This document shows, piece by piece, positions 7,435 to 29,680 of a stretch of 30,462 bases of DNA (the first letter of the stretch is position 1; the number at the start of each line of letters is the position of its first letter). The stretch comes from Actinomycetota bacterium (lineage in GTDB: Bacteria > Actinomycetota > Geothermincolia > Fen-727 > Anoxymicrobiaceae): the NCBI GenBank assembly GCA_018894655.1, contig JAHIPE010000234.1, forward strand, positions 1-30,462, written 5' to 3'. The translations under genes were made by a program, and so were the position numbers. Under the pieces are notes generated by a model, which did not search any database, was not told where the DNA came from, and worked only from the letters and a program-made list of their open reading frames with translations.

Positions 7435-7875
7435 TCAATCGCCATGCCGGCCGATCCCCTGTATCTCCTCCCAGCGATTCTGCAGATCCTCGAGCGTCTT
7501 CTTCTCCAGAACGTCTCGCATTGCCAATGTCATCTCGCCCCAGAGCTCTCTGGTGATGCAGTCCTCGACACGGTCACAAACAGAGGGTTCCCTCAAGCAC
7601 TCGATGGGCGCGAGACTACCCTCGAGCGCCTCAAAGATCTCGTCAAGGCGTATCTCAGGGGCCGGGCGGGCCAAGCGGTAGCCGCCACTCGCTCCACGCT
7701 CTGCCTCGACGAGGTTCCTGTTCTTCAAGAGCTTCATCATGTGCTCGAGGTACCTCTTAGAGATCTCCTGCCGCCGGGCGATGTCCTTCAGGAGCACCAG
7801 CCCTGCTTCGCTGCCATTGACGGCGAGGTCCAGCATGGCCCGCATCCCGTACCGTGCCCTGGTTGATATCTTCAT
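7435..7875 (-). CDS. Rrf2-family transcriptional regulator, IscR-like with three C-terminal Cys
   Basis: MKISTRARYGMRAMLDLA, ISKRYLE and RGASGGYRL motifs, plus C-X6-C-X5-C (ECLREPSVCDRVEDC), typical of Fe-S-binding Rrf2 proteins. Confidence 0.93.
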   Translation of the reverse strand: MKISTRARYGMRAMLDLAVNGSEAGLVLLKDIARRQEISKRYLEHMMKLLKNRNLVEAERGASGGYRLARPAPEIRLDEIFEALEGSLAPIECLREPSVCDRVEDCITRELWGEMTLAMRDVLEKKTLEDLQNRWEEIQGIGRHGD

Positions 7876-13607: not shown

Positions 13608-14564
13608 CTACAGTGAGACGTAGTCGGGCGAGTCGGTCGGCGCGTCGAAGAGCCAGGTGGAGAGGTACCTTTCGCCCGTGTCCGGGAGCACGACCACGAT
13701 CAACTTCCTCTCGTTCTCACGTCTTTTCGCCACCTGGATTGCTGCCCATGCCGCCGCGCCGGAGGATATACCCGCGAGGATGCCCTCGCATTTGGCCAGC
13801 GCCCTGGTCATCTCCCCCGCTGCCTCGTCCTCCACTTTGATTATCTCGTCGATCAGTTCGGTGTTCAGAACGTCCGGTACGAACCCGGCGCCGATGCCCT
13901 GTATCTTGTGAGGGCCGGGCTTTCCTCCCGAAAGGACCGGGGACTTCTCCGGTTCTACGGCAATCACCTTGAAATCCGGCTTCTTTTCCTTTATGACCTC
14001 CGCCACACCGGTCAGGGTTCCCCCTGTTCCCACGCCGCTCACGAGGATGTCGACTTTACCGTCCGTGTCTTCCCAGATCTCACAAGCGGTCGTCTCCCGG
14101 TGAATCCTCGGGTTGGCGGGGTTCTTGAACTGTTGCGGGATGAAACTATTCGGCATCTTCTTCGCCAGGTCCTCAGCTTCCGCCACGGCCCCCGGCATGC
14201 CCTTGGCGCCGGGGGTCAACACCAGCTTCGCGCCGAAAATAGTCATGAGTTTCCTGCGCTCAACGCTCATCGTATCCGGCATGGTCAAGATCAATTTGTA
14301 GCCGCGGGCCGCGCAAACAAAAGCCAACGAAATCCCCGTATTGCCACTGGTGGGCTCGATAATCGTCGTCTCGGGTGTAATGAGGCCACTTTTTTCGGCA
14401 TCATCAATCATGCTGACGCCGATTCGGTCTTTAACGCTCGCCAGTGGGTTGAAGGATTCGAGTTTCGCGTAGATCTCGGCTTCCGCTCCGCCGGTAACCC
14501 GTCGGAGACGCACCAGCGGCGTGTTACCGATCGTCCGCGTTATATCCTCATACAATCTGCTCAT
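13608..14564 (-). CDS. cysK: Cysteine synthase A (O-acetylserine sulfhydrylase)
   Basis: [53 protein letters not shown] and [10 protein letters not shown] motifs; GAGGAGG RBS. Confidence 0.97.
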
Positions 14565-14647: not shown

Positions 14648-14767
14648 TCACAGAAGTGGGGCACAACACATGATGCATGGGCAACACCCGTCCACGCAAT
14701 CTTGACCAGGAACGTTGGGTGGTGCTGCTTGTGTTTCCGTCTTTTGGCCTGCGTTCCTCATGGTCAT
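14648..14767 (-). CDS. Cys-rich leader peptide (MTMRNAGQKTETQAAPPNVPGQDCVDGCCPCIMCCAPLL), putative cys attenuator
   Basis: Hand-translated and absent from the ORF track (<60 aa). Six Cys in 12 codons (14663-14698), GGGAGA RBS at 14785-14780, in-frame starts TTG 14770/ATG 14767/ATG 14761. Stops 83 nt before the cysK ATG. Confidence 0.8.
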   Translation of the reverse strand: MTMRNAGQKTETQAAPPNVPGQDCVDGCCPCIMCCAPLL

Positions 14768-14834
14768 CAATCCGGGTCGTCTCCCGGCGGCCGTGCGCCG
14801 CCTTGAAAAAACCCTGAGACTCAAGTATCATTAT

Positions 14835-14859
14835 ATTGTCTACTATTATGGTAGGTTAT
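14835..14859. promoter_or_regulatory. Putative Rrf2/IscR-type operator (cys promoter / larE divergent region)
   Basis: ATTGTCTACTATTATGGTAGGTTAT; imperfect palindrome CTAC-N7-GTAG; matches the recalled IscR type-1 consensus ATASYYGACTRWWWYAGTCRRSTAT at 20/25 by hand; similar box at 29511-29535. Confidence 0.65.
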
Positions 14860-22459: not shown

Positions 22460-23602
22460 CTAAACCTCCCCGAGAGCCCTTTCCAGGTCCTCGCGCAGGT
22501 CCTCTTTGTTCTCGATTCCAACGGATAGGCGGACGAGGTTGTCGCTAATTCCTCTTCTGCGCCTCTCTCTTTCCCCAATCGAGCTGTGCGTCATCCTTGC
22601 TGGATGGCAGACCAGTGATTCCACCCCTCCCAGACTCTCCGCAAGCGTGAACACCTCCAGCCTCGAAACGAATCTCTCGACACCCGGTAACCCGCCGGCC
22701 AGTTCAATGCTTATCATTCCCGAGAAGCCGCTCATTTGTTTCCTGGCCAGGAGGTGGTACTCGCTGCTCGGGAGACCGGGGTAGTAAACCTTGGATACCT
22801 TCGGGTGCACTTCGAGAAACTCGGCCAGGAACGTCGCGTTCTTCTCGTGTTCTCTCATCCTGATCGCCAGCGTCTTGACGCCCCTCAGGACGAGCCAGCT
22901 GTCCCAAGGGCCGGGGACAGATCCGGCTGCGTTTTGGTAATATTTCAGGACTTCGTGTACCCTCTTGCGCGACGTCACGAGGGCCCCCCCGATGATGTCG
23001 CTGTGGCCCCCAAGGTATTTCGTCGTACTGTGCACCACGATATCCGCTCCGAGTTCGAGGGGCCGTTGAAAATAGGGGCTCGCGAACGTATTGTCGACCA
23101 CCAACAATAGCTGGTTTTTCGAGGCGACGGTTGACAGGTTCTCGATGTCCACGATCTTCAACAACGGATTGGTCGGGGATTCCACCCAGATGAGCTTCGT
23201 GTTGGGGCGGATGGCTTTCTCGAACGCGTTTGCGTCATCGACATCCGCGTACGATGTCTCCAACCCCCATTTCTTGAACACCCTCTCGAAGAGTCTCCAC
23301 GTGCCGCCGTAGAGATCATCGCCCGCGACAACGTGGTCTCCCGTCTTGAGAAGGCTTAGAACCGCGGTCGTGGCGGCCTGGCCGGACGCGAAAGCCAGGC
23401 CGTATTCACCACCCTCGAGCGAGGCAACCGCCTCTTCGAGCGCCGCGCGGGTGGGATTTCCGGTCCTGGAATATTCGTACCCCCTGTGGACCCCTATCGC
23501 GTCCTGCTCGAAGGTGGATGTCTGGTATACCGGCGTGATAACCGATCCCGTCACGGGATCCGGTTTCTGTCCTTCGTGTATGGCCCTGGTCTCAAACCGC
23601 AC
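22460..23602 (-). CDS. Cystathionine gamma-lyase/gamma-synthase (Cys/Met metabolism PLP enzyme)
   Basis: YSRTGNPT, FASGQAA, ESPTNP, VDNTFASP, HSTTKYLGGHSD, AESLGGVES and RLSVGIE motifs; start overlaps the cbs stop. Confidence 0.93.
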   Translation of the reverse strand: MRFETRAIHEGQKPDPVTGSVITPVYQTSTFEQDAIGVHRGYEYSRTGNPTRAALEEAVASLEGGEYGLAFASGQAATTAVLSLLKTGDHVVAGDDLYGGTWRLFERVFKKWGLETSYADVDDANAFEKAIRPNTKLIWVESPTNPLLKIVDIENLSTVASKNQLLLVVDNTFASPYFQRPLELGADIVVHSTTKYLGGHSDIIGGALVTSRKRVHEVLKYYQNAAGSVPGPWDSWLVLRGVKTLAIRMREHEKNATFLAEFLEVHPKVSKVYYPGLPSSEYHLLARKQMSGFSGMISIELAGGLPGVERFVSRLEVFTLAESLGGVESLVCHPARMTHSSIGERERRRRGISDNLVRLSVGIENKEDLREDLERALGEV

Positions 23603-24977
23603 TTTTGCACCCCTCTTGTGCCACCGCCCAACTCTCGATCAAATCCCATCTGGTGACGATTCCCTCGGGAACGTCTCCAGATGTAACAACTACCGCTGGC
23701 GCGCCTGACAGAAACAACCTGTACGCTTCCGCCACGTCGATTTCCTCGTCCAGGGAGGGCATCGGCTTCCCCATCACGTCGGCGATTTCCTGCCTGCTTA
23801 GATCCACGCCCTCACCCTCACGAAGTGCTTTCATCACCGACGCCTCATTGATGCTCCCCACGATCGTCTCGGCATCGATCACCGGAATCTGCGAGATATC
23901 GTTGTCGCGCATGAGCTCTATCGCATTTTCAAGGGTCTCCGTGGGACCTACGAAGATTATGGAGGAGTTGCTCTTTTTTCGAGACAATATGTCTCTCAGC
24001 CTGGCCTCCCGAACCGGAACCCCCTCCCAGAAACCTTGTTGCAGCATCCAGGAGTCGCGATACATCTTGGACAGGTAATTCCTGCCGGTGTCGGGAAGCA
24101 GCGCCACGACATACTTCGGTGCCGGGAGCCTCTGCGCGTACTTCAAAGCAGCCGCCACGGCTGTCCCGGATGAACCACCAACGAGCAATCCCTCCTCGCG
24201 GGCCAGGCGCCGGGCCGTGTTGAACGACTCCTCGTCACTCACGCGCACCATGTCGTCGACGACCTGCCTGTCAAATGTCCTGGGGATGAAATCCTCCCCG
24301 ATGCCTTCCACCTTGAACGGCCGGGGAGTGTCGCCGGAGAGGATAGACCCTTCCGGATCGGCGCCGACCACGATGATGTCGGGATTCTTCTCCTTGAGGT
24401 ATTTCCCAACCCCCGAGATGGTCCCGCCGGTGCCCATGCCGGCTACAAAGACCTGCACCATGCCCCCGGAATCTTCCCAGATCTCCGGACCCGTCGTAGC
24501 GTAATGAGCGAGAGGGTTGTTCGGGTTTTCAAACTGATTCGGCCTGAAAGCTCCGGGTAACTCTTTGGCCAGCCTGTCGGCGACCCCGTTGTAGCTTTCG
24601 GGTGAATCCGGCGGTACGTCCGTGGGCGTGATTATCACTTCCGCCCCGTATGCTTTAAGAAGGTTCACCTTGTCCTCGCTCATCTTGTCGGGCATGACGA
24701 AGATGGCTCGGTAACCCTTGACGGCGGCCGCGAGCGCCAGGCCGACCCCGGTGTTGCCCGCCGTTGCCTCGATGATGGTGCCGCCCGGATTTAACCTTCC
24801 CTCCCTTTCGGCGGCTTCGATCATGGCGACGCCAATGCGGTCCTTGACGCTGCCGCCCGGATTAAGGTACTCAATTTTCACGTAGAGCTCCGACGATACC
24901 GTTGCCGCCAGCTTGTTGAGCTTGACGAGCGGTGTCTTGCCGATCGCTCCGAGGATGTTCGAGAGTTCTCCAGGCAT
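23592..24977 (-). CDS. cbs: Cystathionine beta-synthase with C-terminal CBS (Bateman) pair
   Basis: NPGGSVKDR, EATAGNTG, GMGTGGT, VEGIGEDF and PDTGRNYLSK motifs plus C-terminal ISQIPV CBS domains. ATG 24977 has a GGAGG RBS. Confidence 0.92.
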   Translation of the reverse strand: MPGELSNILGAIGKTPLVKLNKLAATVSSELYVKIEYLNPGGSVKDRIGVAMIEAAEREGRLNPGGTIIEATAGNTGVGLALAAAVKGYRAIFVMPDKMSEDKVNLLKAYGAEVIITPTDVPPDSPESYNGVADRLAKELPGAFRPNQFENPNNPLAHYATTGPEIWEDSGGMVQVFVAGMGTGGTISGVGKYLKEKNPDIIVVGADPEGSILSGDTPRPFKVEGIGEDFIPRTFDRQVVDDMVRVSDEESFNTARRLAREEGLLVGGSSGTAVAAALKYAQRLPAPKYVVALLPDTGRNYLSKMYRDSWMLQQGFWEGVPVREARLRDILSRKKSNSSIIFVGPTETLENAIELMRDNDISQIPVIDAETIVGSINEASVMKALREGEGVDLSRQEIADVMGKPMPSLDEEIDVAEAYRLFLSGAPAVVVTSGDVPEGIVTRWDLIESWAVAQEGCKSAV

Positions 24978-25016
24978 TACTCCTCCCTTCTTCCTCAATC
25001 AATGACGGGTGGCAGT

Positions 25017-26159
25017 CTACTCGATGCCCCTCAAGCGCAAGGCATCATGCAACAAAGAGTTGCCATCGCACCTGTAACAATGATTCTCCGTTCCGGGCGG
25101 GATGTCGGCGGCATATACGATCTCGGCGGCCTCGAGCACCGTTTCAACGTACCACTCCGCGGTCGGCGCCCGATGACCCTCCAGCAACGAGCCGGGGTTG
25201 GGAGACCACACGAACGGTACGACGTTCGCCCCGAGGAAGGTGATCTCGCGCACGCCCTCCAGGAACGTTTTTCTCGGTTCCAGGCCCATCACGAACACGC
25301 CATAAACGTTCCCCTCCCCGAAGACCTCGACGGCCATCCGGATTCCCTGGAGGAAATCGTCATGGCTTACGGCGCCGGCTTTGCCGGGGCAAATGGCCGC
25401 GTACAATGCCTCGTCCCAGATCTCCATACTGAAACCTATTGCTCGAATCCCCGCCTCGTTGTACGCGAGCACGTCATCGAGGCCGACGGCCGGGGACGGG
25501 AGTATCGTGCCGGGTATCCCTTCGAGACCCGTCTGTGCGGAAATAGACGCCATGATATCTCTAACCAGATCGATTTCTCTCTGGCGATTGAAGCACCCGC
25601 CGGTCAGCAGGACGTGCCTTGCGACGCCTTCCTCGAGCGCGGCGCTTGCGACTTCCCCTATCTCCCGGACTTCTTTTTTCCTGAGCACGGAGTCATAGGT
25701 GTCGGAGGTTGATGCGAGGTTGCAGAATAGACACTGCTGCTTTTTCGCGAAATAACTACAGTGGTTCTGGTAGCAGAAGAACAGGCAGTCCTCCCCTCCG
25801 ATTTGCCCGATTCTTACCATGGGGTTGCCTCCCAGGGTTTTCTTGTCGTAGAACTCGGGGCGAGGCAACCAGTTGACTTCGCACAGCCGCTCTTCCAGCC
25901 TGTAGAGGTCCAGCCCGTTGGTGCATCTTCTGACCTTGAAAGGCGAACGACTGTTTTTTCTGAACTGAACGATGGTTCCACCCGGCAAAACGAAGTCGTC
26001 CGGGAGTTTCGTTCCGACGTGATCCTCGAAATCCCAACCGAAGAGCCCGTGGTTCTGCTCCTTGTGGATAGTCCCCAAGCCCTCAAGAGCTTCACCGCCC
26101 GCTCGAACGCCCTCGACGAGCAGGTCCGCCTTCAACTTAAGAGTCTCGATCGGATTCAT
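25017..26159 (-). CDS. Radical SAM protein with a non-canonical CX8CX2C motif
   Basis: CSYFAKKQQCLFC, LLTGG and C-terminal CYRC. ATG 26159 has an AAGGAGG RBS and overlaps the metW 3' end. Confidence 0.82.
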   Translation of the reverse strand: MNPIETLKLKADLLVEGVRAGGEALEGLGTIHKEQNHGLFGWDFEDHVGTKLPDDFVLPGGTIVQFRKNSRSPFKVRRCTNGLDLYRLEERLCEVNWLPRPEFYDKKTLGGNPMVRIGQIGGEDCLFFCYQNHCSYFAKKQQCLFCNLASTSDTYDSVLRKKEVREIGEVASAALEEGVARHVLLTGGCFNRQREIDLVRDIMASISAQTGLEGIPGTILPSPAVGLDDVLAYNEAGIRAIGFSMEIWDEALYAAICPGKAGAVSHDDFLQGIRMAVEVFGEGNVYGVFVMGLEPRKTFLEGVREITFLGANVVPFVWSPNPGSLLEGHRAPTAEWYVETVLEAAEIVYAADIPPGTENHCYRCDGNSLLHDALRLRGIE

Positions 26160-26790
26160 CCGACCCTCCTTGTGAATTCTCATCCGGCTCGAGCCTCTTC
26201 GAAATCAGGAAGAATCCCGCAAGGGCCCTAAGATTCGGCAGTAACCTGATTGTCCCGGTCCCGCCGAAGAAAGCAACCTTTTCGATTCGTATGTTTTTTG
26301 AGTGGCAGTAGTCGGTAAAATCCGCGATGCTCAAGAAATGAAGATTTGGCGTATCGTGCCACTGGTAGGGCAAAGACGGCGTCACCGGCGTCCGGCCCCT
26401 GAAGAACACCTGGCACCTTCCGGGGTAGTGCGCGAAATTGGAGAAGCCTACGATCGCATTCCTGCTGATTCTGAGTGCCTCCATGAGCACTATGTCCGGC
26501 CGTCTGACGACTCGCTGGAGGCTCCGGTCGAATATCGCGAAATCGAACGAGTTATCGGCATAATCGCCCAGTGCCGTGTCAACCTGCTCGTGGAGCACAT
26601 TGAGGCCTTTCTGGACACACAGGGATATGGAGGCATCGTCTATCTCGATTCCCTGCGCTTTGACGTTCCTTTCCTTTACGAGGCGCGACAGCAATCCCCC
26701 GCTGCCGCAGCCGAGTTCCAGGACCGAGGAGCCCGGTTCCACCCAGTCTATTATTGTTTCGTACGCGGCGCCCCCTGTAGAAAATCCCAT
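26137..26790 (-). CDS. metW: Methionine biosynthesis protein MetW (SAM-binding fold)
   Basis: VLELGCGSG, GIEID, FSNFAH and LPYQWHDTPNLHF motifs; directly follows metX; AAGGAG RBS before ATG 26790. Confidence 0.93.
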   Translation of the reverse strand: MGFSTGGAAYETIIDWVEPGSSVLELGCGSGGLLSRLVKERNVKAQGIEIDDASISLCVQKGLNVLHEQVDTALGDYADNSFDFAIFDRSLQRVVRRPDIVLMEALRISRNAIVGFSNFAHYPGRCQVFFRGRTPVTPSLPYQWHDTPNLHFLSIADFTDYCHSKNIRIEKVAFFGGTGTIRLLPNLRALAGFFLISKRLEPDENSQGGSDESDRDS

Positions 26791-26791
26791 A

Positions 26792-27919
26792 TCAGCGCGC
26801 TCCTTCAAAGACCTTTATCAAGAAATGCGATACGAGGGTGGTCTCCTCATCGACCTCGAGGAGGAACGCGTCATGGCCGTATGTTGAATTGATCTCGCAA
26901 TAAGTCACGTCGACGCCGGCCGTCTTGCAGGCGCGCACTATCTCGAGCGATTGGTAGGATGGGTAAAGCCAATCGGATTTGAAGGACAAAACGAGGATCT
27001 TGGCCTTTAATCCCTTGAACGCATCAGCCAGGTTTCCGCCCCTGGTCGCATCGTACTCGTCAATCGCCCTGGTGATGTAGAGATACGAATTGGCGTCGAA
27101 CCTGTCAACGAAACTCAAGCCCCTGTAATGAAGGTAGTCCTCCACCTCGAAACCGTTGCTGAATGGATGCGCTTTTCCGTTTCCCCCCGTCCGCCGGCCG
27201 AACTTCTCCGCCATCGATATGTCGCTCATGTACGTTATGTGGCCGACCATCCTGGCCACGCTCAGGCCCTTGGCGGGGGACTCGCCACCGTAGTAGCGCC
27301 CGTTTTGCCAGTCCGGGTCGGCCATGATAGCCTGTCGGCCCACCTCGTTAAAAGCTATTTGTTGAGGAGAGTGCCTGGCCGCCGTCGCGATGACGATCGC
27401 GCTCTGTACGCGGTAAGGGTAAGAGACCAGCCATTCCAGCACTTGCTGTCCACCCATCGAACCGCCGGCTACGGAAAGCAGCCTGTCGATTCCCAGGTGG
27501 TCCAGGAGCTGGCCCTGCAACCTGACCATATCCGGGATGGTCACAAGCGGGAAGTCTGTTCCGAACGGCCTTCCCGTCGATGGGTTAATCGAGGACGGAC
27601 CCGTTGTGCCCTTGCATCCGCCAAGCACGTTCGAGCAAACGACGAAGTACTTGTCCGTATCGAACGCCCTGCCCGGCCCGATCATGTCGTCCCACCAGCC
27701 GGGTTTGTTCTGGCCCTTGTGCAAGCCGGCTGCGTGGGCATCTCCCGAAAGCGCGTGAAGCACGAGGATGGCGTTTGATCGGTCCTCGTTCAAATCCCCG
27801 TAAGTCTCATAGGCAACAGTGATTGGAACCAGTTTCTCGCCGGAATCCAGGAGAAATCGACCGGGAGGTGCCGCGAAAGTATAGTATTGTGTCTCGACAA
27901 TGCCGATCCCCTTGCTCAA
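26792..27919 (-). CDS. metX: Homoserine O-acetyltransferase
   Basis: [35 protein letters not shown] and GHDAFL catalytic triad motifs; TTG start with AAGGAGG RBS. Confidence 0.96.
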
Positions 27920-27953: not shown

Positions 27954-29276
<1,323 letters not shown>

Positions 29277-29302
29277 TCAAAATTACGAGGCGTTTTCTCG
29301 AG

Positions 29303-29345
29303 AAATAAAAAACCCGCCAACCGTTTCCCCACCTGGCTGCGGGTT
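29303..29345 (-). terminator. Intrinsic terminator of the met leader (attenuator 3:4 stem)
   Basis: mRNA AACCCGC-AGCC...GGUU-G-GCGGGUU followed by UUUUAUUU, about 50 nt before the metY ATG. Confidence 0.88.
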
Positions 29346-29408
29346 CTTCCTTGATGAATGTCAGAAAGATGATGCCTACATAGGCATGCCCCCCGCGCGC
29401 AGGTGGGA
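29327..29408 (-). promoter_or_regulatory. Antiterminator (2:3) helix of the met leader
   Basis: UCCCACCUGCGCGCGGG (29408-29392) pairs with CCCGCAGCCAGGUGGGG (29343-29327): 9 bp + 5 bp GC-rich helices that sequester the terminator 5' arm. Confidence 0.82.
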
Positions 29409-29483
29409 TCGCATAGCCATGCGACACATCATCATCTGCCTATCGCCGATATAGCTTATCGAGTCATTGCCAGGTCTTATCAT
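29376..29483 (-). CDS. Met-rich leader peptide (MIRPGNDSISYIGDRQMMMCRMAMRSHLRAGGMPM)
   Basis: AGGAGA RBS 7 nt upstream of ATG 29483; 7 internal Met codons plus 1 Cys in the last 19 codons; lies between the promoter and the terminator. Confidence 0.88.
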   Translation of the reverse strand: MIRPGNDSISYIGDRQMMMCRMAMRSHLRAGGMPM

Positions 29484-29510
29484 GCAGACATCTCCTGATG
29501 CGAATACAAT

Positions 29511-29535
29511 AAACCCTACCATTATGATAGAGAAT
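29511..29535. promoter_or_regulatory. Putative Rrf2/IscR-type operator at the met promoter
   Basis: AAACCCTACCATTATGATAGAGAAT; 19/25 identical to the reverse complement of the 14835-14859 box; overlaps the -10 element and predicted start site. Confidence 0.6.
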
Positions 29536-29561
29536 ATACCAGCATCAAACCAGGGTGTCAA
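29533..29561 (-). promoter_or_regulatory. Sigma70-type promoter for the met leader/operon
   Basis: TTGACA (29561-29556)-N17-TATATT (29538-29533). Confidence 0.8.
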
Positions 29562-29680
29562 GGGCAACGGGGATCCAGCCCCAAATCCACAAGGGGATTC
29601 AGGGCTCGCCGGTGCGGGTGCTTGGCCAGCATACTGCTCAATCAATGAGGGGGGGCTGAATATTTACGACTTTTTACTGG

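Follow-up and report, generated by a model that had tools for sequence, protein, structure and literature searches.

A methionine-codon leader upstream of metY in Geothermincolia and its relatives with the sequence features of a ribosome-mediated transcription attenuator

By what means does a bacterium match the expression of its homocysteine and methionine synthesis genes to its supply of methionine? In textbook accounts the task falls to S-adenosylmethionine (SAM) riboswitches, T-boxes or repressors and not to ribosome-mediated attenuation, which makes methionine the sole common biosynthetic amino acid so treated. The question is raised anew by contig JAHIPE010000234.1 (assembly GCA_018894655.1), whose 30,462 nucleotides (nt), analysed as a whole and called the window here, come from a groundwater metagenome-assembled genome, 82% complete, of the class Candidatus Geothermincolia in the phylum Actinomycetota. 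On its minus strand, a short methionine-rich open reading frame (ORF) lies between a promoter and metY, the first gene of an operon with the order metY-metX-metW-rSAM-cbs-cgl (rSAM, radical SAM gene), and an original prediction made from the letters of the window took this region for a methionine-sensing leader-peptide attenuator. Having followed the leader through related genomes, we consider it likely that it is a classical ribosome-mediated transcription attenuator that senses the charging of Met-tRNA through its Met codons, and the methionine specificity thus predicted is new.

At the level of sequence, the leader shows these marks of the classical attenuator class: an ORF with a ribosome-binding site, codons for the end product (8 of 35 being Met), an intrinsic terminator, and an antiterminator whose formation and that of the terminator are mutually exclusive. 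The promoter, ribosome-binding site, 35-codon ORF, antiterminator pairing and terminator all lie on the minus strand exactly where they had been placed (Table 1). The leader ORF closes with a TAG at 29378..29376, immediately preceded by Met-Pro-Met, and carries a Met triplet at 29435..29427 and a Met-Ala-Met core at 29420..29412. The terminator stem (29344..29312) is GC-rich and runs into six U and AUUU (to 29303); a simple terminator scan did not detect it, probably since its 12-nt loop exceeds the 8-nt limit of that scan. The antiterminator duplex consists of 8-9 base pairs (bp) plus 5 bp, and the comparison of energies proposed at the outset as a check favours it, at -31.3 kcal/mol against -15.3 kcal/mol for the terminator. 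A local hairpin in the consensus fold joins the second core Met codon and the last codon through the (U)AUG of each, pairs CCCACC with the G-run, and in the modelled fold can sequester the antiterminator strand. Here the original scheme needs redrawing: the stretch it had called segment 2 does pair with segment 3, but it is not a single segment, corresponding instead to segments 1 and 2 of the local hairpin.

The mechanism that these parts suggest would follow the four-segment logic of the trp leader, with the Met codons as segment 1, the G-rich strand as segment 2, and the two terminator arms as segments 3 and 4. Transcription would start at the strong promoter and a ribosome would translate the 35-codon leader. 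With plentiful Met-tRNA(Met), the ribosome would reach the stop codon, where it would cover the G-rich antiterminator strand, or this strand would refold into the local hairpin; the terminator would then form and transcription would end before metY. Under a shortage of charged elongator Met-tRNA, it would stall on the Met codons, above all at the Met-x-Met core, and so open the local hairpin, whose freed 3' strand would pair with the terminator 5' arm (-31 against -15 kcal/mol) and allow read-through into metY-metX-metW-rSAM-cbs-cgl. A Cys codon, common in the family, may add sensitivity to cysteine. In nearly all members the distance from the G(C/U)G codon at the head of the GCGGG strand to the stop codon is constant, at six codons, so that a terminating ribosome would be expected to reach the G-rich strand, which ends 14-18 nt before the stop. 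The open frame, the invariant core, the covarying switch and the association with genes for homocysteine and methionine all support the attenuator interpretation first proposed; the stalling, its kinetics, on which the outcome in real attenuators turns, and the response to methionine are what we infer from them.

Comparative evidence for the switch comes from a model-based alignment of the family (A2) comprising 31 distinct copies, to which the figures below refer unless otherwise stated. The consensus structure, made up of the terminator and the local hairpin, is paired in 94.6% of cells, as opposed to 33-54% when the partners are slid against each other, and its covariation score of 0.302 compares with 0.184 for shuffled alignments, none of 500 of which scored as high. 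In the terminator, 93-94% of cells are paired and five pairs show compensatory (both-sided) changes. The antiterminator is paired in 83.3% of cells, compared with 76.7% in shuffles (none of 500 reached the observed level) and 29-56% when slid, a column-based figure that is lowered by the slightly shifted antiterminator register of the Terriglobia copies, and its both-sided cells number 26 against 12.7 in shuffles. Leader strand and terminator 5' arm likewise form a duplex stronger than expected from shuffled leader strands (z < -2 in 27 of the 31 copies, with a median z of -3.55) and, in most copies, stronger than the terminator. A single position ties the two folds together: G 29340 pairs either with the leader C 29395, in the antiterminator, or with the 3'-arm C 29316, in the terminator, and in Terriglobia the trio changes from C:G:C to U:A:U (leader:5' arm:3' arm). 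Since position 29340 changes jointly with both partners, the expected signature of two structures, the alternative folds are supported.

Not every hairpin drawn at the outset belongs to this conserved switch. Those proposed over the core Met codons, as a pause hairpin, and across the stop codon are both present in the window (-7.5 and -6.8 kcal/mol, respectively), but their conservation is weak, with 72% of the former paired across 20 homologues and 71% of the latter paired in homologues, and neither has compensatory changes; both were dropped as conserved parts.

That the ORF is translated, and that its Met codons matter, is suggested by what varies and what does not. Every one of the 31 copies has a start codon and an open reading frame, despite N-terminal parts of unlike sequence and varying length (29-40 codons being common) and, in some members, weaker Shine-Dalgarno-like motifs; variability is highest at third codon positions. 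Met makes up about 14% of non-start codons across the family, with starts chosen automatically. The Met-x-Met core is invariant in all copies and holds the sole invariant codons, the upstream Met and Cys codons of the block being common and variable. Because the A-U pairs within the core AUGs never covary, the core appears to be selected for codon identity and not for mere pairing.

These same observations bear on whether the leader might instead be a riboswitch or a protein-binding RNA, sensing SAM, methionine, homocysteine or a regulator, with the reading frame incidental or auxiliary. Such an account would fit a conserved RNA of 130 nt with two alternative structures, as in expression platforms, the usual control of met genes by riboswitches, and the finding that about two thirds of the members are terminator-on at equilibrium without a ribosome. 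It leaves unaccounted for, however, the frame and start codon kept open in every copy despite the variable N-terminal part, the concentration of variability at third codon positions, and the identity of the invariant nucleotides, which are those of AUG codons; nor does the RNA beyond the coding part contain a conserved unpaired core, and the stretch that links stop codon and terminator is unconserved. Known families provide no aptamer either. A search of the window against the 4227 families of Rfam at gathering score gave no match, T-box included, a permissive scan of 29200-29620 (E up to 10) gave nothing relevant and no SAM class, and the best candidate, Leu_leader (RF00512), reached 16.2 bits against a gathering score of 50 (E 0.84), its likeness to the leader being architectural only. 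Moreover, no SAM-I (RF00162) or SAM-IV (RF00634) riboswitch was found in the 82%-complete genome. We therefore think a riboswitch or protein-binding RNA unlikely.

A second alternative would place the sensor in the nascent peptide, as in TnaC or SpeFL: a ligand (methionine, SAM or a related compound) in the exit tunnel would cause arrest near the stop codon and so allow the terminator to form, and absence of the ligand would allow the antiterminator. The conserved C-terminal G-x-G-G-x-x-M-stop and the fixed distance from stop to antiterminator could be read in this way, as could the geometry of the ribosome, which at the stop codon would cover GCGGG only if its 5' edge lies about 15 nt upstream of the P site. 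Yet the RNA explains these residues on its own. The conserved Gly-x-Gly-Gly is the GCGGG strand, which mimics the terminator 3' arm, and its Gly codons follow from the pairing of GCGGG with CCCGC; the conservation of the last codon, usually Met, is explained by pairing of the CAUG of the second core Met with the CAUG of that codon, and L089, L093 and the third L045 copy have no such final Met. Where the RNA covaries, at residues 25-29, the peptide changes radically, His-Leu becoming Leu-Leu, Cys-Ser, Ser-Pro or Pro-Ser, for which reason the peptide sequence there seems not to be under selection. No C-terminal residues conserved beyond the constraints of the RNA were found, and peptide-mediated arrest would leave the enrichment in Met codons unexplained. 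It strikes us as quite improbable, and ribosome stalling at Met codons stays the preferred explanation.

How far does the leader extend beyond the window, and what does it accompany? The original prediction had proposed a search upstream of metY in related genomes for Met-rich ORFs with covarying stems, and this search did uncover a family. With blastn, a conserved stretch of about 130 nt that begins at the Met run and ends at the U-tract was recovered 5' of metY in relatives (E 1e-12 to 1e-20), lying 5' of metY-like genes in the genomes of six relatives as well as on another contig of this assembly; a covariance model, R1, gives the relatives' leaders E values of 1e-11 to 1e-33. By protein search only 9 of 41 relatives have metY, and the leader stands before all 10 of their metY copies, including that of L068, which the search pattern could not match. 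R1 hits fall in 9 of 51 Geothermincolia genomes, exactly the metY carriers, with one hit per metY (10 copies) and none elsewhere. Among 150 genomes sampled evenly across the phylum there were three more Actinomycetota carriers, in two other families, and no match outside three deep families; two of the additional leaders precede metY and one precedes HcyBio (PF01837), a metY-independent enzyme of homocysteine synthesis that is not homologous to metY. In Terriglobia, entered through a genome found in the pattern scan, 8 of 137 genomes have R1 hits, always 5' of metY. The leader thus tracks genes of homocysteine and methionine synthesis, metY and the non-homologous HcyBio alike. In the metagenome contig Ga0182021_10006181 (L045, 7490-10803), three copies lie in one sulfur amino-acid supercluster, preceding cysK-pdxS, an ACT-domain gene and metY-metX-metW-cbs-cgl; the middle copy has the Met-Ala-Met core only and ends in Leu. 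Pattern-scan matches judged to be due to chance were discarded, namely those in 4 of 12 genomes (two Pandoraea, Actinopolyspora and Chloroflexi) and on 3 of 18 metagenome contigs, at least some of them inside coding sequence, and nothing concluded here depends on G051, a genome flagged as unpublished. On comparative grounds the leader is a conserved cis-regulatory family and not a chance pattern, and its distribution holds hints that a leader-metY cassette was transferred horizontally between phyla.

Two sets of loci illustrate the range of forms that the leader takes. In L089 (1501-2930, genome G082), a divergent leader with an M-V-M-C-R-M-A-M core and without the C-terminal Met stands before HcyBio. 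The Terriglobia loci L090-L097, from a small clade of Acidobacteriota, have the same architecture and a Met-Ala-Met-Pro-Met core.

Several points weigh against reading the leader as a Met-codon attenuator. Part of the family was gathered with a sequence pattern that itself fixed some of the conserved positions; members derived from blastn and the model are free of this bias. In some members, once the start and C-terminal Met codons are set aside, just two remain. The local hairpin, paired in 96% of cells, shows one-sided changes only and no compensatory ones. Stalling at the usual last Met codon would favour termination, a caveat voiced at the outset to which an answer is offered by the CAUG:CAUG helix, as the reason for the conservation of this Met, and by the members without it. 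Methionine starvation also depletes the initiator fMet-tRNA, and a possible drop in leader translation could then favour termination, the wrong direction. Finally, in equilibrium folding with the ribosome footprint masked, about half of the members keep the terminator favoured at every ribosome position. The mean terminator probability in these calculations is lowest, at 0.52, when the A site holds the first core Met; it climbs to 0.71 at the next core Met and to 0.83 another three codons on, and stands at 0.76 at the stop, the last figure depending on the assumed 5' edge of the footprint; equilibrium folding would thus back the attenuator model in direction only.

A further alternative concerns the promoter rather than the RNA. 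Relatives have TTGACA or TTGACG and TAnAAT boxes at the equivalent position, and next to the -10 box of the window's promoter is a 15-nt palindrome (Table 1), whose position relative to that box is kept in the Geothermincolia homologues, with compensatory changes of its arms in L044 and L054. The genome holds 13 matches to it at no more than one mismatch, as against 6 for a reversed control. The leader might then serve mainly for constitutive coupling or mRNA stability, control being exerted through this box and the window's Rrf2-family regulator (gene at 7435-7875), with the Met codons of minor importance. Besides the regulator gene, the conserved box abutting the -10 element both here and at the cysK promoter speaks for such control. 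But Terriglobia and the deeper Actinomycetota members lack the box and nevertheless keep leader, Met codons, terminator and antiterminator, and a terminator that acted purely constitutively would have no use for a covarying antiterminator. As the sole means of control, the palindrome is to our mind the least probable of the explanations considered; the two controls can coexist, and a promoter-proximal operator is possible as a second tier only.

The palindrome itself recurs elsewhere. A second copy lies at the cysK promoter (14840-14854) of the window, and the motif CTAyyrTAAyrrTAG adjoins the -10 box at met and cys promoters and at a few others, also on contigs C214 and C42.

Table 1. Elements of the metY leader and genes of the downstream operon, with positions in the window and supporting evidence.
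Feature	Position	Strand	Evidence or remarks
Promoter, sigma-70-type, TTGACA-17-TATATT with TG extension	29533..29561	-	consensus 11/12
15-nt palindrome CTATCATAATGGTAG, 2-3 nt after the -10 box	29516..29530	-	candidate Rrf2-type operator or 5' RNA hairpin
Shine-Dalgarno AGGAG	29492..29496	-	8 nt 5' of the ATG at 29483; read from sequence
Leader ORF, 35 codons and TAG	29376..29483	-	translation; 8 Met including the start, 1 Cys
Regulatory codon block Met-Met-Met-Cys-Arg-Met-Ala-Met (codons 17-24)	29412..29435	-	
Hairpin UCGCAU-GGCU-AUGCGA over core Met codons, possible pause hairpin	29409..29424	-	-7.5 kcal/mol
Local hairpin (segments 1:2)	29379..29415	-	RNAalifold consensus of the leader family
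Antiterminator leader strand (codons 26-31)	29392..29408	-	duplex with 29344..29327, -31.3 kcal/mol
Hairpin across stop codon	29372..29387	-	-6.8 kcal/mol
Terminator 5' arm, common to the antiterminator (segment 3)	29327..29344	-	covariation; 29340 covaries with both partners
Terminator 3' arm and U-tract UUUUUUAUUU	29303..29322	-	hairpin, -15.3 kcal/mol
metY, O-acetylhomoserine sulfhydrylase / homocysteine synthase	27954..29252	-	TIGR01326, 651 bits, over cut-off
metX, homoserine O-acyltransferase	26792..27919	-	NF001209, 501 bits, over cut-off
metW	26137..26808	-	TIGR02081, 202.9 bits against cut-off 189.5
Radical SAM gene	25017..26183	-	'variant radical SAM' NF045502, 363 bits
cbs, cystathionine beta-synthase	23592..24998	-	
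cgl, cystathionine gamma-lyase/synthase-family gene	22460..23602	-	

Downstream of the leader, the assignment of metY-metX-metW agrees with profile matches above cut-offs, and the rest of the operon beyond metW extends over 22460..26183. The radical SAM gene is embedded between metW and cbs, and the corresponding operon of L045 has no radical SAM gene. Two other functions were considered for the ORF and rejected. A precursor of a RiPP (a peptide of ribosomal origin that is modified post-translationally), made for the radical SAM enzyme of the operon, is out because homologous leaders occur in operons without a radical SAM gene (L045) and the ORF overlaps the covarying switch; a copper-binding peptide with Met motifs, tied to the nearby copA, is out because across phyla the ORF follows metY and HcyBio and not copA. 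No RNA run containing the DNA of the window was found; four metatranscriptomes, chosen through a related protein, contained only scraps of the metY coding sequence of other organisms, with a depth of 0 over 29260-29560.

The same assembly holds a second leader (1128-1278) followed by metY (1324-2622) on contig C214 (L031). The C214 MetY protein shares 90% identity with the MetY of the window and 89% with that of the same-genus genome; the pair on C214 is either a true paralogue or the contribution of a second strain binned into the genome. Elsewhere in the window, a minus-strand ORF of 39 codons with 7 Cys (14661-14780) lies upstream of cysK (13608-14564), between cysK and a TTGACA-18-TATGAT promoter, and ends in C-C-P-C-I-M-C-C-A-P-L-L. 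No U-tailed terminator is visible between this ORF and cysK. By analogy with the polycysteine ORFs of mycobacteria discussed below, it is a candidate cysteine-sensing leader.

What would an attenuator of this kind mean? If the model is right, ribosome stalling at AUG codons can report the supply of methionine though initiation also needs Met-tRNA, and the leader would offer a natural system in which to compare limitation of initiator and elongator Met-tRNA. The family is small, sharply defined and covarying, and hence amenable to reporter and in vitro tests. We further lean, with less assurance than for the leader itself, towards the view that leaders with Met (and Cys) codons form a widespread, undescribed class of sulfur amino-acid attenuators that replace SAM riboswitches and T-boxes in several phyla, with Geothermincolia and Terriglobia as the best-defined lineage, whose terminator and antiterminator covary and which horizontal transfer may have spread along with metY. 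Recognition of the Met-codon attenuator described here would also help to annotate met and cys regulons in little-known lineages of groundwater and soil.

Among known systems, the classical attenuators, the trpL, hisL, pheL, leuL, thrL and ilv leaders (Vitreschak et al., 2004, as cited in PMC8079986), are the obvious standard of comparison. With them the metY leader shares a short translated ORF rich in codons for the end product, an intrinsic terminator that lies ahead of the first biosynthetic gene and lends its 5' arm to an antiterminator, a putative 1:2 hairpin that would hold the antiterminator strand, and a stop codon so placed that a terminating ribosome covers segment 2. It differs from them in reading AUG, often with one UGC or UGU, and in that a core Met codon doubles as a strand of the 1:2 hairpin. 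To our knowledge, the leader families in Rfam cover Leu, His, Thr and Trp but not Met.

In the full-text literature no characterised Met-codon attenuator was found, in agreement with the original prediction on this point; any stronger claim that nothing similar has been reported is softened by one near match, the 'metL' peptide before metNIQ in Streptomyces lividans TK24, proposed as a Met attenuator from RNA-seq-based prediction (Droste et al., 2021; PMC8079986). Like the metY leader, metL is a small actinobacterial ORF with many Met and Cys codons (C-M-C-R-R-M-C towards its end) that stands before a methionine-related operon, and its motif resembles the C-C-M-C-M-R-R of family member L088, as judged by eye from the printed peptide; unlike it, metL is leaderless, precedes a transporter and, according to its authors, has no recognisable terminator. 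An earlier comparative survey of Actinobacteria described terminator-less leader ORFs rich in Cys ahead of cys operons and no RNA element ahead of met operons (Seliverstov et al., 2005; PMC1262725). Such polycysteine ORFs of mycobacteria (PMC1262725; bioRxiv 10.1101/834739) resemble the metY leader as ORFs rich in cognate codons before sulfur amino-acid genes of Actinomycetota, but they are leaderless Cys sensors with no intrinsic terminator, whereas the metY leader has a full terminator and antiterminator and would respond to Met. The SAM riboswitches and Met T-boxes, finally, govern the same genes (metY, metX, cysK) with the same output, premature intrinsic termination; the metY leader differs from both in having neither an aptamer nor a tRNA-binding architecture, and the signal that it reads would be the charging of tRNA.

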